In this document: positions 1-62,698 of the stretch, in pieces
Layout of the letters: every line of letters starts with the position of its first letter
How positions within the stretch are numbered: the first letter of the stretch is position 1
Assembly: GCF_963921235.1 (NCBI RefSeq)
Contig: NC_086097.1
Location: 106,394,001 to 106,458,000, forward strand
Length of the DNA: 64,000 bases
Source: Mobula hypostoma
Taxonomy: Eukaryota
Direction: 5' to 3'
Notes under the pieces: generated by a model
Databases searched by the model: none
The model's input: the letters and a program-made list of their open reading frames with translations, nothing else
What the model was told of the DNA's origin: nothing
Made by a program: the position numbers and the translations under genes

Positions 1-669
1 CCACCAAAGTGGATAACCTCACATTTATCCACATTAAACTGCATCTGCCATGAATCTGCCCTCTCCCCAGCCTGTCCAAGTCACCCTGCATTCTCATAAC
101 ATCCTCCTCACATTTCACACTGCCACCCAGCTTTGGCAAATTTACTAATATTACTTTTAATTCCCTCATCTAAATCATTAATATATATTATAAAGAGCTG
201 CGATCCCAGCACTGAACCCTGCGGTACCCCACTGGTCACCGCCTGCCATTCCGAAAGGGACCCGTTAATCGCTACTCTTTGTTTTCTGTCGGCCAGCCAA
301 TTTTCAATCCATGTCAGTACTCTACTCCCAATACCATGTGCCCTAATTTTGCCCACTAATCTCCTATGTGGGACTTTATCAAAGGCTTTCTGAAAGTCCA
401 GGTACACTACATCCACTGGCTTTCCCTTGTCCATTTTCATAGTTACATCCTCAAAAAATTCCAGAAGATTAATCAAGCATGATTTCCCCTTCGTAAATTC
501 ATGCTGACTCGGACCAATCCTGTTACTGCTATCCAGATGTGTCGTAATTTCATCTTTTATAATTGACTCCAGCATCTTTCCCACCACCGACGTCAGGCTA
601 ACCGGTCTATAATTCCCAGTTTTCTCTCTTCCTCCCTTCTTGAAGAGAGGGACAACATTAGCCACCCTG
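1..669 (-). mobile_element. CR1 LINE fragment (ORF2 reverse transcriptase region), 5'-truncated, runs off the window
   Basis: ORF 108..746 contains NYRPVSLTS, YLDFQKAFDKVPH and GVPQGSVLG; closely similar to ORF2 at 35290-38289. Confidence 0.95.
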
Positions 670-1009
670 CCACAACCAGCATCAGAGCCATTAAATGTAA
701 CATCAGATACTGTAAAATAACCAGGTTTAATAAAGATGTTGAACAACTGACTTTATTTTATTTGAACTGTTGTCTTGCTCTTCTGTACATCTGACAAATG
801 CTTGTAGAGTAGTAAAAATGGTCTGGCCATTTTGGCCATTAATTTCCCCTTGCTATTCTGACTTATACACAAAAGGTATTTTTAACAATAAGTTTGAAGT
901 CATTGTATATTCCAATGCTGACCTAGCTGACCTCTAACACCGTGTCCGCTGTGTGGTCGACCTTTACAAAACCTCTGCTCTCTGTATTATATGTTGCATG
1001 GTGCCATCA

Positions 1010-6497: not shown

Positions 6498-7621
6498 AAC
6501 TCCTGCCTGAGGAGTAACCTGGATCTGCTCCAATGTACCTACCACCACAGCCGGTCAAGAGAAAATGTCATTTCAATGGCTCTTCAGTAACATCTGGACA
6601 ATGAAGGTGCATATGTTAGGATGTTCTTTATTGATTACAACTCAGCATTCAATACCATCACCCCCCCAAATCGCATCACCAAGCTTCACCCTAGGCCACA
6701 GTACCTCAATGTGCAAATGGATTCTCAATTTACTCACTGGCAGACTCAAGTACTCAGAAGAGCATCTGAGAAAGCACAACACGTCAAACCTTTAAGTGGA
6801 TGGACTCCAGCAGCAGAAGTCCATGAACATACACTCAGTGGCTACTTTATTAGGTACGAGAGGTATCTAATGACATCTCCTCTACTCACCATCAGAATAA
6901 ATGCACCAAAGGGCTACGTGCTTAGCCTCCTGTTCTTCTCATTTTATGCTTATGATTGTGTGGCTAAGCACAACTCCAATGCTGTATTTAAGTTTGCTGA
7001 AGACATCACTGAGTTGGCCAAATCAAAGGTGGAGCTGAATTTGCATTTAGGAGGGAGACTAAACATCTGGTTGAATAGTGTCACAAAAATAACCTTTATA
7101 CAACATCAGCAAAAGCAAAGAGCTGATTACCTGCTACAGGAGGAAGAAGCTGGAGGTGCATGACCCAGTCCTCATTAGGAGAATGCAGAGGATATAGTAG
7201 CTTTAATTCCTTGACATTAATATATCAGAGGATCTGTCCTTTGAGCAGCACATCAGTGTCATCACAAAGAAGACATGACATCATCTCTACTTTCTTAGAA
7301 GTTTGGCATCAAGGACAGTGGCTTCATCATGCCCAGGAATGGAAAAATCTACAGAGAGTTCTGGATTCAACCCAGTCCATTACAGGCAAAACCCTCCCTA
7401 CCATTGAGTACTTTTACATGGAGCCATGCCACACGAGAGCAGCATCCATCATCGAAGACCTCCACCATCTTTTTCTCACTACCACCAATGGGTAAGAGGT
7501 ACAGGGACCTTAGGTCCCTCACCAACGATTTTCCCACATCTATCCAGCTCTTGAACCAGTGTGGTAACTTTATTCACCACTGCTCTGAACTGATTCAACT
7601 ACCTACAGACTTACTCTCAAG

Positions 7622-9628
7622 TAGTGGTGCCGCCAACATCGCGGCCACTCTCCCAGATGAGCTCAGTCGCTTTTACGCTCAGTTCAATGTCGCTAACTCT
7701 GAGCCTCCGAGGAAAGCCACCGCTACAACCTGCAACCTGGTCATCTCAGAGGCTAAGGTACGCAGATGTTTCCAATGAGTGGACAGTCGCAAGGCTGCGG
7801 GACCGGAATGCATCCCAGGGCGAGTACTCAGGATGTGCGTACTCAGAATGCTTTGAGAGGCTGGTCAAGGATTATATCTGCAGCTTGCTGCCACCCAAAC
7901 TGGACCCCCGACAAGTCGCCTACCAACACAACCAATCAACAGATGATGCAATAGCCATTGCTCTACATACCGTCCTTACACATCTGGAGAAGAAGGATGC
8001 TTATATGAGAATGCTGCTCTTGGACTACAGTTCAGTGTTCAACACCATAGTTCCATCCAGGCTCAACAGGAAGCTCAGAGACCTCGGCCTTGACCCTGCC
8101 TTGTGCAACTGGATACTGGTCTTCCTGTCAGATCGCCAGAAGATGGTAAGAGTGGGCTCCCTCACCTCCACCCATCTGTCACTCAACACAGGAGCCCCTC
8201 AGGGCTGTGTACTAAGTCCCTTCCTTTACTCCCAGTATACCCATGACTGTGTCCCCACCCACAGCTCTAATCCGCTAATTAAATTTGCCGACGACACTAC
8301 ATCGATTGGCCTAATCTCAAATAATAACGAGGTGGCCTACTGGGAAGAAGTCATCTCTCTGACACAGTGGTGTCAAGAAAACAACTTCTCCCTCAATGTC
8401 ACAAAAACAAAGGAGCTGGTTGTGGATTACAGGAGGAATGGAGACAGGCTAACCCCTATTGACATCAATGGATCTGGGGTTGAGAGGGTAAACAGCTTTA
8501 AGTTCCTCAGCATCCACATCACCGAGGACTTCACGTGATCTGTACACACCAGCTGTGTGGTGTAAAAGGCATAACAGCGCCTGTTTCACCTCAGACAGTT
8601 GAGGAAGTTTGGTATGGGCCCCCTAATCCAGAGAATTTTTACAGGAGCACAAATGAGAGCATCCTGACTGGCTGCATCACTGCCTGGTATGGGAACTGTA
8701 CCTCCCTTAATCACAGGACTCTGCAGAGGGTGGCGCAGACAGCCCAGCACATCTGTAGTTGTGAACTTCCCATGATTCAGGACATTTATAAAGAAAGGTG
8801 TGAGAAAAGGACCTGAAGGATCATTGGGAACCTGAGACACCCCAACCACAATCTATTCCAGCTGGTACCATCCAGGAAACGGTACCGCAGCATAAAAGCC
8901 AAGACCAACAGGCTCCGGGACAGCTTCTTCCACCAGGCCATCAGACTGATTAACTCATGCTGATTTGAGTGTATTTCTATGTTACATTGATTGTTCTATT
9001 TATTATAAATTACTATGAATTACTATTATTGCACAATGCACATTTAGATGGAGATGTAACATAAAGATTTTTACTCCTCATGTATGTACATAGAACATAG
9101 AATAGTACAGCACAGTACAGGCCCTTCGGCCCACAATGTTGTGCCGACCCTCAATCCCTGCCTCCCATATAAGCCCCCACCTTAAATTCCTCCATATACC
9201 TGTCTAGTAGTCTCTTAAACTTCACTAGTGTATCTGCCTCCACCACTGACTCAGGTAGTGCATTCCATGCACCAACCACTCTCTGAGTAAAAAACCTTCC
9301 TCTAATATCCCCCTTGAACTTCCCACCCTTTACCTTAAAGCCATGTCCTCTTGTATTGAGCAGTGGTGCCCTGGGGAAGAGGCGCTGGCTATCCACTCTA
9401 TCTATTCCTCTTATTATCTTGTACACCTCTATCATGTCTCCTCTCATCCTCCTTCTCTCCAAAGAGTAAAGCCCTAGCTCCTTTAATCTCTGATCATAAT
9501 GCATATTCTCTAAACCAGGCAGCATTCTGGTAAATCTCCTCTGTATCCTTTCCAATGCTTCCCCAGCCTTCCTATATGTGAAGAATGTAAGAAATAAAGT
9601 GAATTCAATTCAAGTCAATTCAATTCAA
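7622..9628 (+). mobile_element. Rex1-type LINE, 5'-truncated, with (TTCAA)n tail
   Basis: ORF 7624..8538 has LDYSSVFNTI, GAPQGCVLSP and KFADDT; 3'UTR ends aataaa..ttcaattcaagtcaattcaattcaa. Confidence 0.9.
9088..9573 (-). mobile_element. CR1 LINE 3' fragment nested in the Rex1 3'UTR
   Basis: ORF 9151..9555 (ERIQRRFTRMLPG, LERRRMRGD, FFTQRVV); microsatellite tail (ttctatg). Confidence 0.92.
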
Positions 9629-13675: not shown

Positions 13676-16600
13676 AATATAAGACCATCAGACAAAGGAG
13701 CAGAAGTCGGCCATTTGGCCCATTGAGTCAGCTCCGCCATCTTATTATGAGTTGATCCATTCTCCCATTTAGTCCCACTCCCCCACCTTCTCACGATAAC
13801 CTTTGATGCCCTGGCTACTCAGATACCTATCAATCTCTGCCTTAAATACACCCAATGACTTGGCCTCCACTGCTGCGCGTGACAACAAATTCCATAGATT
13901 CACCACCCTCTAACTAAAAAAATTTCTTCCCATTTCTGTTCTGAATGGGCGCCCTTCAATCCTTAAGTCATGCCCTCTCGTACTAGACTCCCCCATCATG
14001 GGAAACAACTTTGTCACATCCACTCTGTCCATGCCTTTCAACATTCCAAATGTTTCTATGAGGTCTCCCCTTATTCTTCTAAACTCCAAGGAATACAGTC
14101 CAAGAGCGGACAAACGTTCCTCATATGTTAACCCTCTCATTCCCAGAATCATTCTAGTGAATCTTCTCTGTACCCTCTCCAACATCAGCACATCCTTTCT
14201 TAAATAAGGAGACCAAAACTGCCCACAGTACTCCAAGTGAGGTCTAACCAACGCCTTATAGAGCCTCAACATCACATCCCTGCTCCTATACTCTATTCCT
14301 CTAGAAATGAATGCCAACATTGCATTCGCCTTCTTCACTACTGACTCAACCTGGAGGTTAACTTTAAGGGTATCCTGTACGAGGACTCCCAAGTCCCGTT
14401 GCATCTCCGAACTTTGAATTCTTTCCCCATTTAAATAATACTCTGTCCATTTATTTTTTCTGCCAAAGTGGATAACCATACACTTTCCAACATTGTACTT
14501 CACTTGCCACTTCTCTGCCCATTCTTCCAATCTATCCAAGTCTCTCTGCAGACTCTCCGTTTCCTCAGCACTACCGGCCCCTCCACCTATCTTCGTATCA
14601 TCAGCAAACTTAGCCACAAAGCCATCTATTCCATAATCCAAATCGTTGATGTACAATGTAAAAAGGAGCGGCCCCAACACAGACCCCTGTGGAACACCAC
14701 TGGTAACCGGCAGCCAACCAGAATAGGATCCCTTTATTCCCACTCTCTGTTTCCTGCCAATCAGCCAATGCTCTATCCACGTATGTAACTTTCCCGTAAT
14801 TCCATGGGCTCTTATCTTGTTAAGTAGCCTCATGTGTGGCACCTTGTCAAAGGCCTTCTGGAAATCCAAATATACAACATCCACTGCATCTCCCTTGTCT
14901 AGCCTACTGGTAATTTACTCAAAAAATTGTAATAAGTTTGTCAGGCAGGATTTTCCTTTAAGGAACCCATGCTGAGTTCTACCTATCTTGTCATATATGC
15001 CTCGAGGTACTCTGTAATCTCATCCTTGACAATCGACTCCAACAACTTCCCAACCACCAACGTCAAGCTAACAGGTCTATAATTTCCTTTTTGCTTTCTT
15101 GCCCCCTTCTTAAATAGCGGAGTGACATTTGCAATCTTCCAGTCCTCCGGAAGCATGCCAGAATCTATCGACTTTTGAAATATCGTCGCTAATGCCTCCG
15201 CAATCTCCACAGCTACTTCCTTCAGAACACGCGGGTGCATTCCATCTGGTCCAGGAGATTTATCTACCTTTAGACTATTCAGCTTCCTGAGTATTTTCTC
15301 TGTCGTAATTGTGACTGCGCACACTTCTCTTCCCTGCCACTCTTGAGTGTCCAGTATACTGCTGATGTCTTCCTCAGTGAAGACTGATGCAAAATACTCA
15401 TTCAGTTCCTCTGCCATCTCCTTATCTCCCATTACAATTTCTCCAGCATCATTTTCTATCGGTCCTATATCTACTCTCACCTGTCTTTTACTCTTTATAT
15501 ACTTGAAAAAGCTTTTAGTATCCTCTTTGATATTATTTGCTAGCTTCCTTTCATAATCTTTTCCCTGTTAATGACCTTCTTGGTTTCCTTTTGTAAGGTT
15601 TTAAAAACTTCCCAATCCTCTGTCTTCCCACTAATTTTTGCTTCCTTGTATGCCCTCTCCTTTGCTTTTACTTTGGCTTTGACTTATCTTGTCAACCACG
15701 GTTGCATCCTTTTTCCATTCGAAAATTTCTTATTTTTTGGAATATACCTGTCTTGCACCTTCCTCACTTCTTGTATGAACTCCAGCCACTGCTGCTCTGC
15801 TGTCTTTCCCGCCAGTGTCCCTTTCCAGTCAACTTTGGCTAGTTCCTCTCTCATGCCACTGTAATTTCCTTTACTCCACTGAAATACCAACACATCAGAT
15901 TTCGGCTTCTCTTTTTCAAATGTCACAGTGAACTCAATCATGTTATGATCACTGCCTCCTAAGGGTTCCTTCACCTCAATCTCTCTAATCACCTCCGGTT
16001 CATTACACAATACCCAATCCAGTACAGCCGATCCCCTAGTGGGCTCAACAACAAGCTGTTCTAAAAAGCCATCTCGCAGACATTCTACAAATTCTCTCTC
16101 TTGAGATCCAGTGCCGACCTGATTTTCCCAATCCACTCGCATGTTAAAATCCCCCACAATTATTATAACACTGCCCTTCTGACAAGCCTTTCCTATTTCC
16201 AGTTGTAATTTGTAGTCCACATCCCTGCAGCTGTTTGGAGGCCATCAGGGTCCTTTTACCCCTGTTATTTCTTAGCTCAACCCATAAAGATTCTAAACCT
16301 TCCGATCCTATATCACCTCTTTCTAATGATTTAATATCATTTCTTACCCATAAAGCCACGCCTCCCCCTCTGCCTACCTTCCTATCCTTCCGATACACCG
16401 TGTATCCTTGAACGTTCAGCTCCCAGAGACATGCATCCTTTAGCCAGGTCACAGTGATGGCCACAATATCATACCTGCCAGTCTGTAGCTGTGTGACAAG
16501 ATCATCCACCTTATTCCTTATGCTGCGTGCATTTAAGTACAACACCTTAAGACCAGTATGTGATACTTTCCACTTTGATTTCACTGCAACTTTATTGCAT

Positions 16601-17797
16601 TGTAACTCATCCCAATGGCTACAAATTTGACCCATCACCCGCCTGTCTTTCCTGACATCTTTACTGCTCACTATCTTAGATTCATTTCTGTTTTCCCCTT
16701 CCTCCGCTCTGTCACCTGGTTCCTATCCCCCTGCCAAATTAGTTTAAACCCTCCCTAACAGCTCTATTAAACGTTCCCGCCAGGATATTGGTCCCCTTCG
16801 GGTTCAGGTGTAACCTGTCCTTTTTGAACAGGTCATACTTCCCCCAGAAGAGATCCCAATTATCCAAGAATCTGAAGCCCTGCCCCCTACACCAGTCTCT
16901 CAGCCACGCATTCATCTGCCTGGTCCTACTATTCTTGCCCTCACTAGCACGTGGCACAGATAGCAATCCCAAGATTACTACCCTGGAGGTCCTGCTTCTC
17001 AACTTCCTTCCTAACTGCTGGAAATCTCTCTTCAGGACCTCCTCCTTTGTCCTATCTATGTCATTGGTACCAACATGTACCAAGACAACTGGCTGCTCAC
17101 CCTCCCCCTTCAGAATATTCAAGACCCGATCCGAGACATCCCGTACCCTGGCACCTGGGAGGCAACACAGCATGCGGGTATCTCTATCAGGCTCACAGAT
17201 TCTCCTGTCCGTTCCCCTGACTATGGAATCCCCTACGACTACCGCATTTCTCAACTCCCTCCTTCCTTCTCTCCTGCACAACAGCGCCAGGCTCAGTGCC
17301 AGAGACCTGGTCACCGTGGGCATCCCCTGTCAGGTCATCCCCCTCAATAGCATCCAAAACAAGATATTTGTTGCTGAGGGGGACAGCCACAGGTGTGCTC
17401 TCCTCTATCCAGGCCTATCCCTTCCCTCTCTTGACAGTGACCCAGTTTCTGACCTCTGTAGCCTGGGGATGACTACCTCCCTGTAGCTGCTGTCTATCAC
17501 CTCTTCACTTTCCCTGATAAGCAGTAGGTCATCAAGCTGCAGCACCGGATCCCTAACACGGTCTCTGAGGAGCTGCATCTCGGTGCACCTGGCGCAGATG
17601 TGGTCATCGGGGAGGCTGGATTCCCACATCTGACACCCTGAACAAAGCACTAACCCTGCAGGCATGCTATCTAATTCTACAGGAATGAAACAAGAAAAAT
17701 AAGTCTACTCACCCACTTACCTCGCCAAACAAACAAACTTTTTAAACCTTTAGCTCGCACCGTTAGCTGTGTGAGACCTGCTGTTCCTGTCTGTCTG
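13676..17797 (-). mobile_element. Near full-length CR1 LINE with frameshifts (zinc-finger/leucine-zipper/esterase ORF1; APE-RT ORF2)
   Basis: Successive minus-strand ORFs 17405-17665 (CSGC..CARC), 16739-17323 (GDS, GTND, DRLH), 16144-16671 (NARS), 15684-16220 (GDFN, SDH), 14983-15480 and 13910-14884 (PQG, FADD). Confidence 0.97.
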
Positions 17798-18672: not shown

Positions 18673-21600
18673 ATCAGTCTTCTGGGGCAGGTGGGACCTG
18701 TACAAGAGAGACGGGTTACACTTGAACTACAGGGGGACCGATATCCTTTCAGGGAGGTTTGTTAATGCTATTGGGGAGGCTTTAAACTAGATTTGCAGGG
18801 GGATGGGAACCAGAGTGCCAGAGCTGATAGTGTGGCTGGGGTGAAAATAAATGATGTTAAAAGTTCAAGCAAATCTGCTAATAGAAAGGTTGTGAGTGAT
18901 GGTAAAAATATTCTGAGGTGTATATATTTCAATGCTAGGAGTATTGCGGGGAAGGCAGATGAGTTGAGGGCGTGGATTGACACGTGGAATTATGACATTA
19001 TAGCAATTAGTGAAACTTGACTACAGGAGGGGCAGGACTGGCAGCTGAATATTCCAGGGTTCCGATGTTTCAGATGTGATCGAGGCAGAGGAATGAAAGG
19101 TGGGGGAGTAGCATTGCTTGTTTGGGAAAATATTACAGCAGTGCTCAGGCCGGACAGATTAGAGGGCTTGTCTACTGAGTCCTTATGGGTGGAGCTGAGA
19201 AACAGGAAAGGTATGGCCACATTAGTGGGATTGTATTACAGACCACCCAATAGTCAACGAGAATTGGAAGAGCAAATCTGCAGAGAGATAGCAGGCAACT
19301 GCAAGAAACATAAAGTTGTGGTGGTAGGGGATTTTAATTTTCCATATATTGATTGGGTCTCCCACACTGTTATGGGTCTAGATGGTTTAGAGTTTGTAAA
19401 ATGTGTTCAGGAAAGTTTTCTAAATCAATATATAGAGGGACCAACTAGAGGGAATGCAATATTGGATCTCCTGTTAGGAAACGAGTTAGGACAAGTGACA
19501 GAAGTCTGTGTAGGGGAGCACTTTGGTTCCAGTGATCATAACACCATTAGTTTCAACTTGATCATGGACAAGGATAGATCTGGTCCTAGGGTTGAGGTTC
19601 TTAACTGGAAGGCCAAATTTGAAGAAATGGGAAAGGATCTAAAAAGCGTGGATTGGGACAGGTTGTTCTCTGGCAAGGATGTGATCAGTAGGTGGGAAGC
19701 CTTCAAAGGAGAAATTTTGAGAGTGCAGAATTTGTATGTTCCTGTCAGGATTAAAGGCAAAGTGAATAGGAATAAGGAACCTTGGTTCTCAAGGGATATT
19801 GCAACTCTGATAAAGAAGAAGAGGGAGTTGTATGACATGTATAAGAAGCAGGGAGTAAATAAGGTGCTTGAGGAGTATAAGAAGTGCAAGAAAATACTTA
19901 AGAAAGAAATCAGGAGGGCTAAAGAAGACATGAGGTTGCCTTGGCAGTCAAAGTGAAGGATAATCCAAAGAGCTTTTACAGGTATATTAAGAGCAAAAGG
20001 ATTGTAAGGGATAAAATCGGTCCTCTTGAAGATCAGAGTGGTCGCCTATGTGCGGAACCAAAGGAAATGGGGGAGATCTTAAATAGGTTTTTTGCATCTG
20101 TATTTACTAAGGAAACTGGCATGAAGTCTATGGAATTAAGGGAAACAAGTAGTGAGATCATGGAAACTGTACAGATCGAAAAGGAGGAGGTCCTTGCTGT
20201 CTTGAGGAAAATTAAAGTGGATAATTTCCCGGGACCTGACAGGGTGTTCCCTCGGACCTTGAAGGAGACAAGTGTTGAAATTGCAGGGGCCCTGGCAGAA
20301 ATATTTAAAATGTTGCTGTCTACAGGTGAAGTACCGGAGGATTGGAGAGTGGCTCATGTTGATCCGTTGTTTAAAAAAGGATCGAAAAGTAATCCGGGAA
20401 ATTATAGGCCAGTAAGTTAACGTCGGTAGTAGGTAAGTTATTGGAGGGAGTACTAAGAGACAGAATCTACAAGCATTTGGATAGACAGGGACTTCTAGGG
20501 AGAGTCAACATGGCTTTGTGCGTGGTAGGTCATGTTTGACCAATCTATTGGAGTTTTTCGAGGAGGTTACCAGGAAAGTGGATGAAGTGGATATTGTCTA
20601 CATGGACTTCAGTAAGGCCCTTGACAAGGTCCCGCATGGGAGGTTAGGTAGGAAAATTCAGTTGCTAGGTATACATGGAGAGGTGGTAAATTGGATTAGA
20701 CATTGGCTCAACGGAAGAAGCCAAAGAGTGGTAGTAGAGAATTGCTTCTCCGAGTGGAGGTCTGTGACTAGTGGTGTGCCACAGGGATCAGTGCTGGGTC
20801 CATTGTTATTTGTCATCTATATCAATGATCTGGATGATAATGTGGTAAATTGGATCAGCAAATTTGCTGATGATACAAAGATTGGAGGTGTAGTAGACAG
20901 TGAGGAAGGTTTCAGAGCCTGCAGAGGGACTTGGACCAGCTGGAAAAATGGGCTGAAAAATGGCAGATGGAGTTTAATACAAACAAGTGTGAGGTATTGC
21001 ATGTTGGAAGGACAAACCAAGGTAGAACATACAGGGATAATGGTAAGGCACTGAGGAGTGCAGTGGAACAGAGGGATCTGGGAATACAGATACAAAATTC
21101 CCTAAAAGTGGCGTCACAGGTAGATAGGGTCGTAAAGAGAGCTTTTGGTACATTGGCCTTTATTAATCAAAGTATTGAGTATAAGAGCTGGAATGTTATG
21201 ATGAGGTTGTATAAGGCATTGGTGAGGCCGAATCTGGAGTATTGTGTTCAGTTTTGGCCACCAAATTACAGGAAGGATATAAATAAGGTTGAAAGAGTGC
21301 AGAGAAGGTTTACAAGGATGTTGCCAGGACTTGAGAAACTCAGTTACAGAGAAAGGTTGAATAGGTTAGGACTTTATTCCCTGAAGCGTAGAAGAATGAG
21401 GGGAGATTTGATAGAGGTATATAAAATTATGATGGATATTGATAGAGTGAATGCAAGCAGGCTTTTTCCACTGAGGGAAGGGGAGAAAAAAACCAGAGGA
21501 CATGGGTTAAGGGTGAGGGGGGAAAAGTTTAAAGGGAACATTAGGGGAGGCTTCTTCACACAGAGAGTGGTGGGAGTATGGAATGAGCTGCCAGACGAGG

Positions 21601-27071: not shown

Positions 27072-29698
27072 TGGAGAAGGAAGTCTGAGAATCGGAGCGG
27101 GAGTGCGGAGGAAGCCATTTTGAATTTTTTCAGGTTTTTTTCATCGGCGTTCAGAGAGGCGGGACTGCGCAGGCGTGTGACGTCGGGCAGTGAAGTGCGG
27201 AGGATTTAAAAGGCCAGAAATCCTGATTCGGGTTTAACTCGGAGAAGGAAGTCTCAGAATTGGAGCCGAAGTGCGGAGGAAGCCATTTTGAATTTTTCGG
27301 TTTTTTTTCATTGGCATTCAGAGAGGCAGGACTGCGCAGCCATGTGACATCGGGCAGTGAAGTGCGGAAGATTTAAAAGGACAGAAATCCTGATTCGGGT
27401 TTAATTCAGAGAAGGAAGTCTGAGAATCGGAGCGGGAGTGCGGAGGAAGCCATTTTGAATTTTTCAGTTTTTTTCATCGGCGTTCAGAAAGGCAGGACTG
27501 CGCAGGCGTGTGACATCGAGCAGTGAAGCGTGGAAGATTTAAAAGGAACACAGCCTTATACAGCGGGCAGCGGAGTGAGCCGGGAGCAGAGTGAAGGCTT
27601 AAGGGCTTTGGCTCAACGGGCTTAGGCAGAAACGGGTGAGGTGAGGAACGTTTGGTATTCATTTTTTGTTGTTATTTGAGGAGAGGGAGAAGTATGAGTG
27701 TGAAGGCATCTTGTTGTTCTCAGTGCCGGATGTGGGAGGTCATGGAGTCTCCCAGCCTCCCGGACGTCCACATCTGCGCCAGGTGCACCAAGATGCAGCT
27801 CCTAAGAGACCGCATTAGGGAATTGGAGCTGCAGCTCGATGACTTCCATCTGGTCAGGGAAAGTGAGGAGTTGAAAGAGAGGATTTACAGGCAGGAGGTC
27901 ACACCGGGGCCACAGGAGGCAGACAAGTGGGTCACGGTTAGGAGGGGGAAGAGGAGGAGTCAGGTAATAGAGAGTACTCCAGTGGCTGTGCCCCTTGACA
28001 ATATGTACTCCTGTTTATGAGTACTGTTGGGGGGACAGCTTACCTGGGGGAAGCAACAGTGGCTGTGCCTGTTGGATTAGATACTTAGACTCTTAGGCAC
28101 AGAGTCCGGCCATATAGCTCAGAAAGGTAGGGAAAGGAAGAGGAAGAGGAGGGAAGCAGTAATAGGGGACTCAATAGTTAGGGGGTCAGATAGGTGGTTG
28201 TAACATCCTTGGTCTGAATGCTCCTGATCTCTGTCCCCTGCCTATCCTTCCTCACACACTGTCTACTAGCTTTCTCTATTTGTGAACTAACCTCCTCTCT
28301 CCTAGTCTCTTTAATTTGATTCCCACCCCACATTCTAGTTTAAAGTCACCTCAGTAGTCCTCGCAAATCTCCCTGCCAGGATATTGGTCCCCCTAGGATT
28401 CAAGTGTAACCTGTCCTTTTTGTACAGGTCACACCTGCGCCAAAAGAGGTCCCAATGATCCAAAAACTTGAATCCCTGCCCCCTGCTCCAATCCTTCAGC
28501 CACGCATTTATCCTCCACCTCATTGCATTCCTCCTCTCACTGTCGCGTAGCACAGGCAGTAATCCCGAGATTATTACCTTTGCGGTTCTTTTTCTCAATT
28601 CCCTTCCTAACTCCCTATATTCTCCTTTCAGGACCTCTCCTCTTTTCCTACCTATGTCATTGGTACCTATATGTACCACGACCTCTGGCTCCTCTCCCTC
28701 CCACTTCAGGATATCTTGATCGCAATCAGAAACATCCCGGACCCTGGCATCAGGGAGGCAAACTACCATCCGGGTCTCTGGACTGCGTCCACAGAATCGC
28801 CTATCTGACACCCTGCTATTTCCACACTAACTTCCCTCAAGGTCCTAGGAAATATCTTGTCCTGACCTGGAGACTTATCCACTTTTATATTCCTTAAAAG
28901 GGCCAGTACTTCCTCTTCTTTTATCGTCATACTTTCCATAACTACCCTTCTTGTTTCCTTTACCTTACACAATTCAATATCCTTCTTCTTAGTGAATACT
29001 GAAGAAAAGAAATTGTTCAAAATCTCCCCCATCCTTTTGGTTCCGCACATAGCCGTCCACTCTGATTCTCTAAGGGACCAATTTTATTCCTCACTATCCT
29101 TTTGCTATTAATATAACCATAGAAACCCTTTGGATTTATTTTCACCTTACTTGCTAAAGCAGCCTTGTATCTTCTTTTAGCTTTTCTAATTTCTTTCTTA
29201 AGATTCTTTTTACATTCTTTATATTCCTCTATCCCTCTGTTCTACAGCATTCTTCAATGCCCTACCATTTACCATGTTAGTTAGGTTTTTATTCTTTGGA
29301 GCGTAGAAGGTTGAGAGGGAACTTGATGGAGGTGTTTAAAATTATGAGGGGGATTTATAGAGTTGATTTGGATAGGCTTTTTCCATTGAGAATGAGGGAG
29401 ATTCAAACAAGAGGACATGAGTTCAGAGTTAAAGGGCAAAAGTTTAGGGATAACATGAGGGGGAACTTTACTCAGAGAGTGGTAGCTGTGTGGAACGAGC
29501 TTCCAGCAGAAGTGGTTGAGGCAGGTTCGATGTTGTCATTTAAAGTTAAATTGAATAGATATATGGACAGGAAAGGAATGGAGGGTTATGGGCCGATTGC
29601 AGGTCGGTGGGACTAGGTGAGAGTAAGAGTTCGGCATGGACTCGAAGAGCCGAGGTGGCCTGTTTCCGTGCTGTAATTGTTTTATAGTTATATAGTTA
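27072..29698 (+). mobile_element. CR1 LINE with intact 5' and 3' ends but internally deleted and inverted segments
   Basis: 5'UTR monomers and ORF1 start (+), ORF1 end and ORF2 pieces (-) at 28201-29275, 3' end (+) at 29277-29698; candidate TSD tacagt (27066-27071, 29699-29704). Confidence 0.88.
27073..27546 (+). promoter_or_regulatory. Three tandem ~168-bp CR1 5'UTR monomers (putative promoter array)
   Basis: Units start at 27073, 27241 and 27408; unit 1 has gccatttt (YY1-like), gaggcgggac (GC box), tgcgcaggcg (NRF1-like), tgacgtc (CRE) and tttaaaa, and units 2-3 carry decayed variants. Confidence 0.75.
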
Positions 29699-35191: not shown

Positions 35192-35289
35192 ATAGAAACA
35201 TAGAAACATAGAAAATAGGTGCAGGAGTAGGCCATTCGGCCCTTCGAGCCTGCACCGCCATTTATTATGATCATGGCTGATCATCCAAC

Positions 35290-38200
35290 TCAGAACCCAG
35301 CCTTCCCTCCATACCCCCTGACCCCTGTAGCCACAAGGGCCATATCTAACTTCCTCTTAAACATAGCTAATGAACTGGCCTCAACAGTTTGCTGTGGCAG
35401 AGAATTCCACAGATTCACCACTCTCTGTGTGAAGAAGTTTTTCCTAACCTCGGTCCTAAAAGGCTTCCCCTCTATCCTCAAACTGTGACCCCTCGTTCTA
35501 GACCTCCCCAACATCGGGAACAATCTTCCCGCATCTAGCCTGTCCAATCCCTTTAGGATCTTATACGTTTCAATCAGATCCCCCCTCAATCTTCTAAATT
35601 CCAACGAGTACAAGCCCAGTTCATCCAGTCTTTCTTCATATGAAAGACCTGCCATCCCAGGAATCAATCTGGTGAACCTTCTTTGTACTCCCTCTATGGC
35701 AAAGATGTCTTTCCTCAGATTAGGGGACCAAAACTGCACACAATACTCCAGGTGTGGTCTCACCAAGGCCTTGTACAACTGCAGTAGTACCTCCCTGCTC
35801 CTGTACTCGAATCCTCTCGCTATAAATGCCAGCATACCGTTCGCCTTTTTCACCGCCTGCTGTACCTGCATGCCCACTTTCAATGACTGGTGTATAATGA
35901 CACCCAGGTCTCGTTGCACCTCCCCTTTTCCTAATCGGCCACCATTCAGATAATAATCTGTTTTCCTATTTTTGCCACCAAAGTGGATAACTTCACATTT
36001 ATCCACATTAAATTGCATCTGCCATGAGTTTGCCCACTCACCCAACCTATCCAAGTCACCCTGCATCCTCTTAGCATCCTCCTCACTGCTGACACTGCCA
36101 CCCAGCTTTGTGTCATCCGCAAACTTGGAGATGCTGCATTTAATTCCCTCATCCAAGTCATTAATATATATTGTAAACAACTGGGGTCCCAGCACTGAGC
36201 CTTGCGGTACCCCACTAGTCACCGCCTGCCATTCTGAAAAGGTCCCGTTTATTCCCACTCTTTGCTTCCTGTCTGCTAACCAATTCTCCACCCACACCAA
36301 TACCTTACCCCCAATACCGTGTGCTTTAAGTTTGCACACTAATCTCCTGTGTGGGACCTTGTCAAAAGCCTTTTGAAAATCCAAATATACCACATCCACT
36401 GGTTCTCCCCTATCCACTCTACTAGTTACATCCTCAAAAAATTCTATGAGATTCGTCAGACATGATTTTCCTTTCACAAATCCATGCTGACTTTGTCCGA
36501 TCATTTCACCGCTTTCCAAATGTGCTGTTATCACATCCTTGATAACTGACTCCAGCAGTTTCCCCACCACCGACGTTAGGCTAACCGGCCTATAATTCCC
36601 CGGTTTCTCTCTCCCTCCTTTTTTAAAAAGTGGGGTTACATTAGCCACCCTCCAATCCTCAGGAACTAGTCCAGAATCTAACGAGTTTTGAAAAATTATC
36701 ACTAATGCATCCACTATTTCTTGGGCCACTTCCTTAAGCACTCTGGGATGCAGACCATCTGGCCCTGGGGATTTATCTGCCTTCAATCCCTTCAATTTAC
36801 CTAACACCACTTCCCTACTAACATGTATTTCGCTCAGTTCCTCCATCTCACTGGACCCTCTGTCCCTTACTATTTCTGGAAGATTATTTATGTCCTCCTT
36901 AGTGAAGACAGAACCAAAGTAATTATTCAATTGGTCTGCCATGTCCTTGCTCCCCATAATCAATTCACCTGTTTCTGTTTGCAGGGGACCTACATTTGTC
37001 TTTATCAGTCTTTTCCTTTTTACATATCTATAAAAGCTTTTACAGTCCGTTTTTATGTTCTCTGCCAGTTTTCTCTCATAATCTTTTTTCCCCTTCCTAA
37101 TTAAGCCCTTTGTCCTCCTCTGCTGAACTCTGAATTTCTCCCAGTCCTCAGGTGAGCCACTTTCTCTGGCTAATTTGTATGCTACTTCTTTGGAATTGAT
37201 ACTATCCCTAATTTCTCTTGTCAGCCACGGGTGCACTACCTTCCTTGATTTATTCTTTTGCCAAACTGGGATGAACAATTGTTGTAGTTCATCCATGCAA
37301 CCTTTAAATGCCTGCCATTGCATATCCACCGTCAATCCTTGAAGTGTCATTTGCCAGTCTATCTTAGCTAATTCACGTCTCATACCTTCAAAGTTACCCC
37401 TCTTTAAGTTCAGAACCTTTGTTTCTGAATTAACTACGTCACTCTCCATGTTAATGAAGAATTCCACCATATTATGGTCACTCTTACCCAAGGGGCCTCT
37501 CACGACAAGATCGCTAATTAACCCTTCCTCATTGCTCAAAACCCAGTCCAGAATAGCCTGCTCTCTAGTCGGTTCCTCGACATGTTGGTTCAAAAAACCA
37601 TCCCGCATACATTCCAAGAAATCCTCTTCCTCAGCACCTTTACCAATTTGGTTCACCCAGTCTACATGTAGATTGAAGTCACCCATTATAACTGCTGTTC
37701 CTTTATTGCACACATTTCTAATTTCCTGTTTAATACCATCTCCGACCTCACTACTACTGTTAGGTGGCCTGTACACAACTCCCACCAGCGTCTTCTGTCC
37801 CATAGTGTTACGCAGCTCTACCCATATCGATTCCACATCTTCCCGGCTTATGTCCTTCCTTTCTATTGCGTTAATCTCTTTTTTAACCAGCAACGCCACC
37901 CCACCTCCCCTTCCTTCATGTCTATCCCTCCTGAATATTGAATATCCCTGAACGTTGAGCTCCCATCCCTGGTCACCCTGGAGCCATGTCTCTGTGATCC
38001 CAACTATATCATAATCATTAATAACAATCTGCACTTTCAATTCATCCACCTTATTACGAATGCTCCTTGCATTGACACATAAAGCCTTCAGGCGCTCTTT
38101 TACAACTCTCTTAGCCCTTTTTAATGCTTGCCCTGGATTTGTCGGCCTGCCACTTTTACTTTTCCCCTTTGTACTTTTTGCTTCTACGCTCACTTTACAC

Positions 38201-38304
38201 CCCTCTGTCTCTCTGCACTGGTTCCCATCCCTCTGTTGTGAACTAACCTCCTCACACCTAGCCGCTTTAATTTGATTCCCACCCCCCAACCATTCTAGTT
38301 TAAA
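35290..38304 (-). CDS. CR1 ORF2: APE endonuclease plus reverse transcriptase (no ATG before the endonuclease; -1 frame relative to ORF1)
   Basis: About 1000 open codons; NARS, TETW, GDFN, SDH (APE); NYRPVSL, PQGSVLGP, FADD (RT); the track start at 38289 is TTG. Confidence 0.95.
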   Translation of the reverse strand, partial: FKLEWLGGGNQIKAARCEEVSSQQRDGNQCRETEGCKVSVEAKSTKGKSKSGRPTNPGQALKRAKRVVKERLKALCVNARSIRNKVDELKVQIVINDYDIVGITETWLQGDQGWELNVQGYSIFRRDRHEGRGGGVALLVKKEINAIERKDISREDVESIWVELRNTMGQKTLVGVVYRPPNSSSEVGDGIKQEIRNVCNKGTAVIMGDFNLHVDWVNQIGKGAEEEDFLECMRDGFLNQHVEEPTREQAILDWVLSNEEGLISDLVVRGPLGKSDHNMVEFFINMESDVVNSETKVLNLKRGNFEGMRRELAKIDWQMTLQGLTVDMQWQAFKGCMDELQQLFIPVWQKNKSRKVVHPWLTREIRDSINSKEVAYKLARESGSPEDWEKFRVQQRRTKGLIRKGKKDYERKLAENIKTDCKSFYRYVKRKRLIKTNVGPLQTETGELIMGSKDMADQLNNYFGSVFTKEDINNLPEIVRDRGSSEMEELSEIHVSREVVLGKLKGLKADKSPGPDGLHPRVLKEVAQEIVDALVIIFQNSLDSGLVPEDWRVANVTPLFKKGGREKPGNYRPVSLTSVVGKLLESVIKDVITAHLESGEMIGQSQHGFVKGKSCLTNLIEFFEDVTSRVDRGEPVDVVYLDFQKAFDKVPHRRLVCKLKAHGIGGKVLVWVENWLADRKQRVGINGTFSEWQAVTSGVPQGSVLGPQLFTIYINDLDEGIKCSISKFADDTKLGGSVSSEEDAKRMQGDLDRLGEWANSWQMQFNVDKCEVIHFGGKNRKTDYYLNGGRLGKGEVQRDLGVIIHQSLKVGMQVQQAVKKANGMLAFIARGFEYRSREVLLQLYKALVRPHLEYCVQFWSPNLRKDIFAIEGVQRRFTRLIPGMAGLSYEERLDELGLYSLEFRRLRGDLIETYKILKGLDRLDAGRLFPMLGRSRTRGHSLRIEGKPFRTEVRKNFFTQRVVNLWNSLPQQTVEASSLAMFKRKLDMALVATGVRGYGGKAGF

Positions 38305-39230
38305 GTCACCTCAGTAGCCCCCGCTAATCTCCCTGCCAGGATATTGGTCCCCCTAGGATTTAAGTGTAACCCGTCCTTTTTGTACAGGTCACACCTGCGC
38401 CAAAAGAGGTCCCAATGATCCAAAAACTTGAATCCCTGCCCCCTGCTCCAATCCCTCAGCCACGCATTTATCCTCCACCTCATCGCATTCCTACTCTCAC
38501 TGTCGCATGGCACAGGCAGTAATCCCGAGATTACTACCTTTGCGGTCCTTTTTCTCAACTCCCTTCCTAGCTCCCTATATTCTTCTTTCAGGACCTCATC
38601 CCTTTTCCTACCTATGTCATTGGTACCTATATGTACCAGGACCTCTGGCTCTTCACCCTCCCACTTCAGGATATCTTGGACACGATCAGAAATATCCCGG
38701 ACCCTGGCACCAGGGAGGCAAACTACCATCCGAGTCTCTGGACTGCGTCCACAGAATCGCCTATCTGACCCCCTTACTATCGAGTCCCCTATCACAACTG
38801 CCCTCCTCTTCCTTGCCCTACCCTTCTGAGCTACAGGGCCAGACTCTGTGCCGGAGGCAGGGCCCCTGTCGCTTCCCCCGGGTAAGCTGTCCCCCCCAAC
38901 AGTACTCAAACAGGAGTACCTGTTGTTAAGGGGCACAGCCGCCGGGGTACTCCCCATCACCTGCCTTTTCCCCTTCCCCCTCCTAACCGTGACCCACTTG
39001 TCTGCCTCCCGTGGCCCCGGCGTGACCACCTGCCTTCCACTCCTCTCTATCACCTCCTCGCTCTCCCTGACCAGACGAAGGTCATCGAGCTGCAGCTCCA
39101 GTTCCGTAACGCGGTCCCTTAGGAGCTGCATCTCGATGCACTTGGCGCAGATGTAGACGTCCGGGAGACTTGGAGACTCCAGGGCCTCCCACATCCGACA
39201 TCGAGAACAGCAAACTGCCCTCACAGTCAT
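38295..39230 (-). CDS. CR1 ORF1: Cys zinc-finger and leucine zipper plus SGNH/GDSL esterase
   Basis: ATG at 39230 (MTVRAV); CSRC...CAKC, LLRDRVTELELQLDDL, VIGDS, PGAR, GTND, DGLH. Confidence 0.93.
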   Translation of the reverse strand: MTVRAVCCSRCRMWEALESPSLPDVYICAKCIEMQLLRDRVTELELQLDDLRLVRESEEVIERSGRQVVTPGPREADKWVTVRRGKGKRQVMGSTPAAVPLNNRYSCLSTVGGDSLPGGSDRGPASGTESGPVAQKGRARKRRAVVIGDSIVRGSDRRFCGRSPETRMVVCLPGARVRDISDRVQDILKWEGEEPEVLVHIGTNDIGRKRDEVLKEEYRELGRELRKRTAKVVISGLLPVPCDSESRNAMRWRINAWLRDWSRGQGFKFLDHWDLFWRRCDLYKKDGLHLNPRGTNILAGRLAGATEVTLN

Positions 39231-39393
39231 AATGCCCCTCTCCTCAAATAGCAACAGAAAATGAATGTCAAACCTTCCTCGCCTCGCCCGCTTCCGCCTA
39301 AGCCCGGTGAGCCGAAGCCCTTAAGTCTTCACTCTGCTCCCGGCTCACTCCGCCGCCCGCAAACTACGCTGCCCGCTCTCTGAGGCTTTGTTC

Positions 39394-39713
39394 CTTTTAA
39401 ATCTGCCGCGCTGCACTGCCCGACGTCACACGCCTGCGCAGTCCCGCCTCTCAGAAAGCCGTTGGAGAAAAAAAATAACGAAAATTTCAAAAATCTCTTT
39501 TTCGGCACTCCCACTCAGACTCTCAGACTCCTTCTTCGAATCAAATCCAAAGCAGGATGTCTGCCCTTTTAAATCTGCCGCGTTGCACTGCCCGACGTCA
39601 CATGCCTGCGCAGTCCCGCCTCTCAGAAAGCCGTTGGAGAAAAAAAATAACGAAAATTTCAAAAATCTCTTTTTCGGCACTCCCACTCAGACTCTCAGAC
39701 TCCTTCTTCGAAT
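39394..39713 (-). promoter_or_regulatory. Two tandem 172-bp CR1 5'UTR monomers
   Basis: Repeat period 172 (ttttaaatctgcc at 39395 and 39567); minus strand shows GC box, tgcgcaggc, tgacgtc and tttaaaa in each unit. Confidence 0.8.
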
Positions 39714-61479: not shown

Positions 61480-62698
61480 CTAGCCCCAACTAGGAGTTGA
61501 GGATGCCATCGTCTACCTGCTGAACCATGTCTACGCCCACCTGGACAAGCCAGCGAGCACTGTGAGGTTCATGTTTTTTGACTTCTCCAGGGCGTTCAAC
61601 ACCATCCACCCTGCTCTGCTGGGGGAGAAGCTGACAGCGATGCAGGTGGATGCTTTCCTGCTGTCATGGATTCTTGATTACCTGACTGGCAGACCACAGT
61701 ACGTGTGCTGGCAACACAGTGTGTCCGACAGAGTGATCAGCAGCACTGGGGCTCCACAGGGGACTGACTTGTCTCCCTTTCTCTTCACCATTTACACCTT
61801 GGACTTCAACTACTGCACAGAGTCAGAAAACATCTTCATAAGTTTTCTGATGATTCTGCCATAGTTGGATGCATCAGCAAGGGAGATGAGGCTGAGTACA
61901 GGGCTACGGTAGGAAACTTTGTCACATGGTGTGAGCAGAATTATCTGCAGCTTAATGTGAAAAAGACTAAGGAGCTGGTGGTAGACCTGAGGAGAGCTAA
62001 GGTACCAGTGACCCCTGTTTCCATCCAGGGGGTCAGTGTGGACATGGTGGAGGATTACAAATACCTGGGGATACGAATTGACAATAAACTGAACTGGTCA
62101 AGGAACACTGAGGCTGTCTACAAGAAGGGCCAGAGCTGTCTCTATTTCCTGAGGAGACTGAGGTCCTTTAACATCTGCCGGACGATGCTGAGGATGTTCT
62201 ACGAATCTGTGGTGGCCAGTGCTATCATGTTTGCTGTTGTGTGCTGGGGCAGCAGGCTGAGGGTAGCAGCCACCATCAGAATCAACAAACTCATTCGTAA
62301 GGCCAGTGATGTTGTGGGGATGGAACTGGACTCTCTCACGGTGGTGTCTGAAAAGAGGATGCTATCCAAGTTGCATGTCATCTTGGACAATGTCTCCCAT
62401 CCACCACATAATGTACTGATTCAGCACAGGAGTACATTCAGCCAGAGACTCATTCCACCGAGATGCAACACAGAGCATCATAGGAAGTCATTCCTGCCTG
62501 TGGCCATCAAACTTTACAACTCTTCCCTTGGAGGGTCAGACACCCTGAGCCAATAGGCTGGTCCTGGACTTATTTCCTGGCATAATTTACATATTACTAT
62601 TTAACTATTTATGGTTTTATTACTATTTAATTATTTATGGTGCAATTGTAACGAAAACCAATTTCCCCCGGGATCAATAAAGTATGACTATGACTATG
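61480..62698 (+). mobile_element. Rex1-type LINE, 5'-truncated, (atgact)n tail
   Basis: MFFDFSRAFNTI, GAPQGT.LSPFLF, KTKELVVDLRR, YKYLG, RKSFLPVAIKLYN. Confidence 0.93.

Follow-up and report, generated by a model that had tools for sequence, protein, structure and literature searches.

At the junction of open reading frames (ORFs) 1a and 1b of PRRSV (the virus of porcine reproductive and respiratory syndrome), the slippery heptamer U_UUA_AAC is followed 5 nucleotides (nt) downstream by a pseudoknot (PMC9000960); the same heptamer is among the shiftiest on mammalian ribosomes, and equine arteritis virus shifts on the variant G_UUA_AAC (PMC5009743). For long interspersed nuclear elements (LINEs) frameshifting is already a known kind of expression, having been stated for TRE5-A and TRE3-A of Dictyostelium (PMC5911963) and for the gag of Drosophila HeT-A (PMC5009743). 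A UAAUG stop-start coupling is described for SART1 and unconventional reinitiation for human L1, in a source that terms the mechanism of LINE ORF2 translation 'not clear' (PMC3708506). Here we describe the ORF1–ORF2 junction of an intact CR1-type LINE on the minus strand of a 64,000-nt stretch of the Mobula hypostoma genome (the window; contig NC_086097.1 of assembly GCF_963921235.1, positions 106,394,001 to 106,458,000), together with its counterparts in other lineages and genomes. We put the probability at about three in four that ribosomes translating CR1-type LINEs undergo programmed −1 frameshifting at this junction, which would yield an ORF1–ORF2 fusion of ~1,313 amino acids.

ORF1 (38295..39230, minus strand; all coordinates are those of the window) opens with an ATG at 39230 and encodes 311 amino acids with the C-terminus Thr-Leu-Asn, followed by a TAG at 38297–38295. 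Its last codons, ACT TTA AAC TAG, set a candidate frameshift site, U_UUA_AAC (38298..38304, minus), in the X_XXY_YYZ phase of ORF1 and immediately 5′ of the stop codon (38295..38297, minus). ORF2 runs uninterrupted in the −1 frame from the heptamer onwards (35290..38304, minus, with its stop at 35292–35290); the stop-to-stop frame spans 35290–38310, or 1006 codons, and is shut by a TGA at 38313–38311, two codons upstream of TTT. Counted from that TTT, the first methionine of the frame is residue 168 in the window copy, and 28 of 30 siblings have it at residue 207, inside the endonuclease in both cases; the first endonuclease motif (NARS) lies near residue 79. Past the stop stands a G-rich block, GGGGGGTGGGAATC (38274..38287, minus), a candidate frameshift stimulator whose G6 run (38287–38282) begins exactly 10 nt past the heptamer.

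Three further junctions occur in the window: a decayed second copy of the same lineage, here called A (TTTAAAC TAG at 28335..28344, minus, its G block carrying a 4-nt deletion), one of lineage B (GCT TTA AAC TAG at 18781..18790, plus) and one of lineage C (GGT TTA AAC TAA at 16739..16748, minus), the last two each with a G5 run at +10. The string TTTAAACTAG is found three times (18781 plus, 28335 minus and 38295 minus) against 0.2 expected, but the four junctions are repeat copies, so that this count is not independent evidence; independence comes from the other lineages described below. The anatomy bears out most of what a first-pass annotation of the window had read from the letters, namely an ORF1 that ends in TTA AAC TAG with the heptamer in phase (38304–38298, minus), an ORF2 in the −1 frame whose first ATG lies deep within the endonuclease, and a G-rich block after each of the four junctions, the deleted one at 28338 included. 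That annotation had also placed an identical heptamer and stop at 16742, 18781 and 28338: all three heptamers exist, but the stop of the copy at 16742–16748 (minus) is TAA rather than TAG.

Conservation of the heptamer beyond this window is best judged at the nucleotide level. When metagenome contigs were scanned with the ORF1 alignment, 39 loci at 24–52% identity emerged, 16 of which carry N-TTAAAC plus a stop, an ORF1-like upstream context and a downstream G run; the heptamer is TTTAAAC in L091–L096, L099, L101, L102, L107, L111, L113, L120 and L126, and GTTAAAC in L097. Most of the remaining loci stop short of the ORF1 terminus, while L114 has the heptamer followed by TGC before the locus ends, and L103 and L119, degraded in appearance, lack the motif. 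Seventeen junctions, 4 of the window and 13 metagenomic, preserve the end of ORF1; in them the final Leu is always TTA, the final Asn always AAC, and the heptamer always in the same ORF1 phase (17/17 for each). A control Leu in the same junctions, that of the HL motif ~20 codons upstream, is written TTA in 3, TTG in 2, CTG in 5, CTA in 4 and CTT in 3; elsewhere in the final 50 codons of ORF1, Leu is written with all six synonyms, and other Asn codons in the ORF1 tail stand at 22 AAT to 6 AAC. The codon preceding TTA ends in T in 16/17 junctions, yet encodes Thr, Ala, Gly, Tyr, His, Ser, Cys or Phe, the sole exception at this X position being the G_UUA_AAC of L097. The heptamer is thus kept beyond what Leu-Asn coding would require, with the upstream Leu free to vary, and the pattern indicates that selection acts on its nucleotides and not on the amino acids.

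A position profile of 19 junction representatives, anchored on the heptamer and scored from −36 to +51, found the heptamer and the first two letters of the stop identical in 18–19 of the 19 and a G at positions 17–21 in 17–19, with every other position at 15/19 or below. In all lineages the ORF1 stop comes directly after the heptamer, invariant in position though its identity may be TAG, TAA or TGA, which suggests that the stop contributes to the shift. The −1 frame entered at the heptamer encodes an endonuclease, with or without a reverse transcriptase, in all five metagenome-derived elements tested. Dual coding was weighed as an explanation for this constancy of the nucleotides but rejected, since the Phe-Lys codons of the −1 frame at the heptamer, a frame shut 2–5 codons upstream, would need a frameshift or an upstream non-AUG start to be translated.

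Protein databases extend the distribution of the Leu-Asn terminus. A search with ORF1 found 156 homologues, and the 120 listed, at 29–98% identity, include entries named as coming from rays, skates, sharks, coelacanth, frogs, turtles, lizards, a snake, a hummingbird and an alligator. Leu-Asn ends 83 of these 120, and 80 of the 90 that retain the C-terminal GxHLx motif. Of the 150 proteins listed when 1.84 billion representatives were searched with a profile, 137 had not been seen in the first search; 59 of the 137 end in Leu-Asn, bringing the total to 142 of the 257 listed, with named hosts among rays, sharks, coelacanth, frogs, turtles, squamates and a hummingbird. Thirteen different residues stand before Leu-Asn in these 142 enders. 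Those that no NNT codon specifies (Glu, Lys, Gln, Met and Trp) account for only 2/142 there, against 50/142 and 51/142 at the two positions before it, a scarcity that matches the prediction of a required U at the X position.

Sister proteins with an esterase-type ORF1 end differently. Nine of the ten that close on Gly-Asn do so with Gln-Gly-Asn (P0112, P0117, P0165, P0173, P0181, P0185, P0198, P0219 and P0244), and two others with Ser-Lys-Asn (P0190 and P0259); Gln before Leu-Asn occurs in 0/142. Judged from the protein alone, these ends could be encoded by the classic heptamers G_GGA_AAC and A_AAA_AAC. A scan of viral contigs returned no DNA from the Gln-Gly-Asn or Lys-Asn lineages, and the relatives that such a query found in the source genome are 32–39% identical and all belong to Leu-Asn lineages.

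Within the source assembly (3.48 Gb), there were 1,243 first-look candidates for the lineage A junction, and at least 40 of the copies scored show 100% identity over 241 nt. The −1 frame is open across 541 codons to the end of the locus in 24 of 30 fetched lineage A copies and, together with the identical junctions, this points to a young family. The heptamer is retained in all 30 of these copies and in all 60 copies of lineages B and C (30 loci each). Two more lineages, reached through divergent ORF1 queries and examined over short stretches, have the junctions GCT TTA AAC TAA (lineage D, the heptamer whole in 8 of 10 old copies) and GAT TTA AAC TAA (lineage E, six copies read: L140–L144 and L148).

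The G run downstream of the stop is nearly as regular in its placement. A run of five or six G residues begins exactly 10 nt past the heptamer in 14 of 18 junctions and at 7, 8, 9 or 12 nt in the others, two of these four being visibly mutated copies, and the spacer between heptamer and run is variable in sequence. In the ORF2 frame the run spans codon borders (xxG GGG Gxx) with variable flanking amino acids, which points to a constraint at the RNA level. A simple G:C helix on the run was rejected, as no C-rich partner is visible by eye in the ~90 nt after it. Compared with L140 over 38190–38233 (minus), lineage A carries ~18 additional codons between the junction and the block Asp-Gly-Asn-x-Cys-Arg-Glu-Thr-Glu-Gly-Cys-Lys, which in lineage E (L140) adjoins the junction directly; the insert supplies its own G block, and the G run of lineage A accordingly stays 10 nt from the heptamer.

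These features suggest how ORF2 may be expressed. Most ribosomes would decode UUA (Leu) and AAC (Asn) and stop at the adjoining codon, producing the 311-amino-acid ORF1 protein, while a minority would slip one base back on U_UUA_AAC, with both tRNAs re-pairing to UUU and AAA, and would go on to read CUA and then the linker, the endonuclease and the reverse transcriptase. The product would be a fusion of 311 and 1,002 amino acids in the manner of Gag-Pol, made at what may be a fixed low ratio. Its efficiency would probably be set by the adjacent stop, acting as a slow A-site event, and by the single-stranded G5–6 run 10 nt downstream. As LINEs need very little ORF2 protein, even a weak signal that lacks a pseudoknot could be enough. 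The first-pass annotation had proposed a −1 frameshift fusing ORF1 to ORF2, and both the conservation of the heptamer and the lack of a conserved ORF2 start support that proposal.

Several points nevertheless weigh against a frameshift. The shift itself, its ratio and the roles given here to the stop and the G run are deduced from sequence, and the lineages compared are mutually related, so that the counts above are only partly independent (we judge there to be about nine deep lineages). No canonical stimulatory RNA structure was found 5–9 nt downstream, the conserved feature being instead the G5–6 run at 10 nt. In predictions limited to hairpin and G-quadruplex folds, free of pseudoknots, the 100 nt after the heptamer folded no better than shuffled sequences in any of eight lineages (z from −1.62 to +1.18), the minimum-energy folds of 16–18 lineages shared no hairpin on the G run, and only 3 of 16 best folds included a two-tier G-quadruplex; the downstream pseudoknot or quadruplex that the first-pass annotation had thought worth folding for gains no support from these folds. 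No Rfam family came near its threshold at the junction. The G run is part of the translated ORF2 frame, whose codon 7 is GGG and always encodes Gly, so that some protein-level constraint on the run is possible. Finally, some lineages do offer a start codon: a UAAUG stop-start overlap in the ORF2 frame sits atop the slippery site in lineage E and in L113 (L113:3052–3066), and an in-frame AUG stands two codons past the stop (codon 5) in L091, L095 and L101.

It is these start codons that make termination-reinitiation, in which the 40S subunit would stay on the RNA after the ORF1 stop and begin anew at a neighbouring AUG, or at a non-AUG codon, of the ORF2 frame, the main rival explanation. The six copies of lineage E that carry UAAUG, the nearby AUGs of the four metagenomic loci, the invariant position of the stop and the coupling described for SART1 (PMC3708506) would all suit it. 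Across lineages, however, it is the heptamer that is conserved and not the AUG: five representatives have a stop-start overlap or adjacent AUG, and twelve (A, B, C, D, L092, L094, L096, L097, L099, L102, L107 and L120) have no AUG nearby. The first AUG in the ORF2 frame falls at codon 207 in lineage A, 105 or 68 in B, 39 in C, 59 in L092 and L094, 29 in L097, 23 in L102 and 5 in L101, so that no start codon is conserved among the lineages compared. For A, L092 and L094, three of the six intact lineages, this AUG comes after NARS, and a start there would drop conserved endonuclease sequence. Reinitiation, moreover, predicts neither a canonical heptamer in the exact phase of ORF1 nor an X position kept across changes of amino acid. 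The profile offers no conserved island between −36 and −1 that could serve as a calicivirus-type tethering motif, conservation farther upstream being inseparable from that of ORF1 coding, and the G run that is conserved lies downstream of the stop. In the geometry of calicivirus-type tethering, that is the wrong side for reinitiation. We therefore regard reinitiation as distinctly unlikely to be the general mechanism.

Two other routes appear less probable still. ORF2 might be expressed from a message or entry site of its own, through an internal promoter, a splice or an internal ribosome entry site (IRES), with the heptamer kept as some other RNA or DNA signal. Nothing specific to these elements speaks for this, although mouse L1 is reported to use IRESs (PMC3592465). 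We consider it very improbable, since in three of the six intact lineages the first endonuclease motif precedes any AUG, the ORF2 frame is shut 2–5 codons upstream of the heptamer with no AUG in that interval, and the conserved island coincides exactly with an in-phase slippery heptamer; contigs of four public runs also show no joint at the junction, rare spliced forms being beyond the reach of such contigs. The shift might instead arise in the RNA, by polymerase slippage on TTTAAA that leaves some of the transcripts a base longer or shorter. Homopolymers on which slippage is known, such as the runs of 9 in bacteria (PMC5009743), are far longer than the three T and three A found here, and slippage predicts neither dependence on the X_XXY_YYZ phase nor a T at X, which leaves it scarcely credible. 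Among the rows listed in the contig table of the same four runs there is no indel at the heptamer and no variant at 38265–38304, the flanks being variable, and a look-up of RNA runs that contain the junction listed none; contigs drop rare variants and do not reveal expression, and none of this is used as evidence. Ribosomal frameshifting at the heptamer remains the explanation that we favour.

Set beside the systems known to shift, the CR1 junction shares with the ORF1a/1b junctions of arteriviruses and coronaviruses its heptamer, its phase and a polymerase-bearing fusion, and L097 even the equine arteritis virus variant; it differs in having no supported pseudoknot or hairpin, in the adjacent 0-frame stop, in the G5–6 run at 10 nt and in its host, a cellular retrotransposon. 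At a second PRRSV site, in nsp2, a protein complex bound to a C-rich motif 10 nt past the slippery sequence stimulates the shift (PMC9000960). There, too, a short, unstructured and sequence-specific element lies 10 nt from the slippery site, but the motif is C-rich and bound by protein where that of CR1 is G-rich, and the heptamer is G_GUU_UUU; the resemblance is a lead only. The logic of gag-pol expression in retroviruses and long-terminal-repeat retrotransposons is the same, an abundant RNA-binding or structural product accompanied by a rare enzyme-bearing fusion, whereas the LINE ORF1 is unrelated to Gag, no protease releases the enzymes and no particle is known. TRE5-A and TRE3-A, apurinic-type (APE-type) LINEs with ORF2 in the −1 frame as in CR1, provide a precedent for LINE frameshifting from another clade and host kingdom (PMC5911963). 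SART1 and human L1 likewise have bicistronic RNAs with a stop at the junction (PMC3708506), but they have no slippery heptamer, and in CR1 it is the heptamer and not the AUG that is conserved. The stop itself has a forerunner in pea enation mosaic virus, whose G_GAU_UUU_UGG_UAG also has a 0-frame stop beside the shift site and where replacing that nearby stop with a sense codon strongly alters frameshifting; the heptamer is a different one, and the virus relies on downstream and long-range RNA structures (PMC5009743).

The literature searched yielded no account of CR1 or L2 frameshifting, though older CR1 or LINE papers or Repbase entries may mention it; neither 'frameshift' nor 'overlap' was met in passage searches of a 2014 CR1 survey and a 2026 survey of the CR1 group, nor 'slippery' in the latter. 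What appears unusual in the CR1 case, as far as the junction sequences go, is the combination of a canonical heptamer with a stop that is obligatory and directly adjoining, and with a G run 10 nt away, with no predicted structure. CR1-group elements are described as the dominant retrotransposons in most vertebrate species (PMC13343379), and the conserved slippery site offers a specific, testable answer to the question of how bicistronic LINEs translate ORF2. The predicted and so far unrecognised ORF1–ORF2 fusion would explain how the enzyme is recruited to the particle of its own RNA. If the reading is right, thousands of copies per genome would join the short list of −1 frameshift sites in vertebrate DNA, and the junction would be a natural case of frameshifting without an RNA pseudoknot.

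A bolder reading joins these strands. For hundreds of millions of years, vertebrate CR1-group LINEs may have used a structure-independent signal (U_UUA_AAC, an obligatory adjacent stop and a single-stranded G5–6 tract at 10 nt) in which a factor acting in trans would dock on the tract. That factor could be the zinc-knuckle ORF1 protein of the element itself, whose level would then tune fusion output; the sister Gln-Gly-Asn and Ser-Lys-Asn lineages would have swapped in G_GGA_AAC and A_AAA_AAC. Taken as a whole this is speculative and rather unlikely. Natural G-quadruplex stimulators of frameshifting are described as not yet known (PMC5009743), and, were the joint reading true, CR1 would be the first case in nature of a frameshift stimulator dependent on a G tract, and the first of a cellular mobile element whose frameshift is stimulated by a protein.

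The remaining features of the element support its assignment. As read from the translation, the N-terminus of ORF1 carries a CxxC...CxxC motif of zinc-knuckle type and then a coiled-coil-like stretch; an SGNH/GDSL esterase follows (Pfam PF13472, E 8e-16, residues 176–324 of the stop-to-stop frame), and the closest homologue among the matches listed is 98% identical and 311 amino acids long. ORF2 (P0002) encodes an apurinic-type endonuclease (37465..38034, minus; PF03372/PF14529, residues 93–282) and a reverse transcriptase (35962..36615, minus; PF00078, E 1e-33, residues 566–783). Upstream of ORF1, the 5′ untranslated region holds a tandem repeat (39393..39713, minus; Tandem Repeats Finder, a 172-bp unit in 1.9 copies with 98% match), which we take to be reminiscent of the promoter monomers of mouse L1. 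The 3′ end is an octamer microsatellite of CR1 type (35192..35218, minus; period 8, 3.5 copies), a period-8 microsatellite being a conserved feature of CR1 3′ ends (PMC4316615), and the esterase type is the sole identifiable ORF1 type in CR1 and L2 (PMC13343379). On these grounds the element is assigned to the CR1-type LINEs, a label that rests on the ORF1 type and the 3′ end.

Some public records of such elements are misleading. Homologues of ORF1 stand under unrelated names in P0023, P0028, P0038, P0054, P0069, P0070 and P0114, among them a Pseudomonas aeruginosa SGNH hydrolase, a ribosomal protein S24 isoform, a hydroxyacid oxidase 2 isoform and TMEM204 isoforms; these entries look like contamination or artefacts of transposon-derived gene models. 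Two of the models, P0038 and P0054, run Gly-Phe-Lys-Leu across the junction into the endonuclease, and they are probably wrong, as are ORF2 models begun at an internal Met. The window itself is rich in LINE debris, with reverse transcriptase and endonuclease fragments in ORFs of the regions 108–752 (minus), 7594–8538 (plus), 13910–14914 (minus), 19021–19956 (plus) and 61768–62556 (plus), and one ORF among these regions matches the ALKBH8 N-terminal Pfam family.

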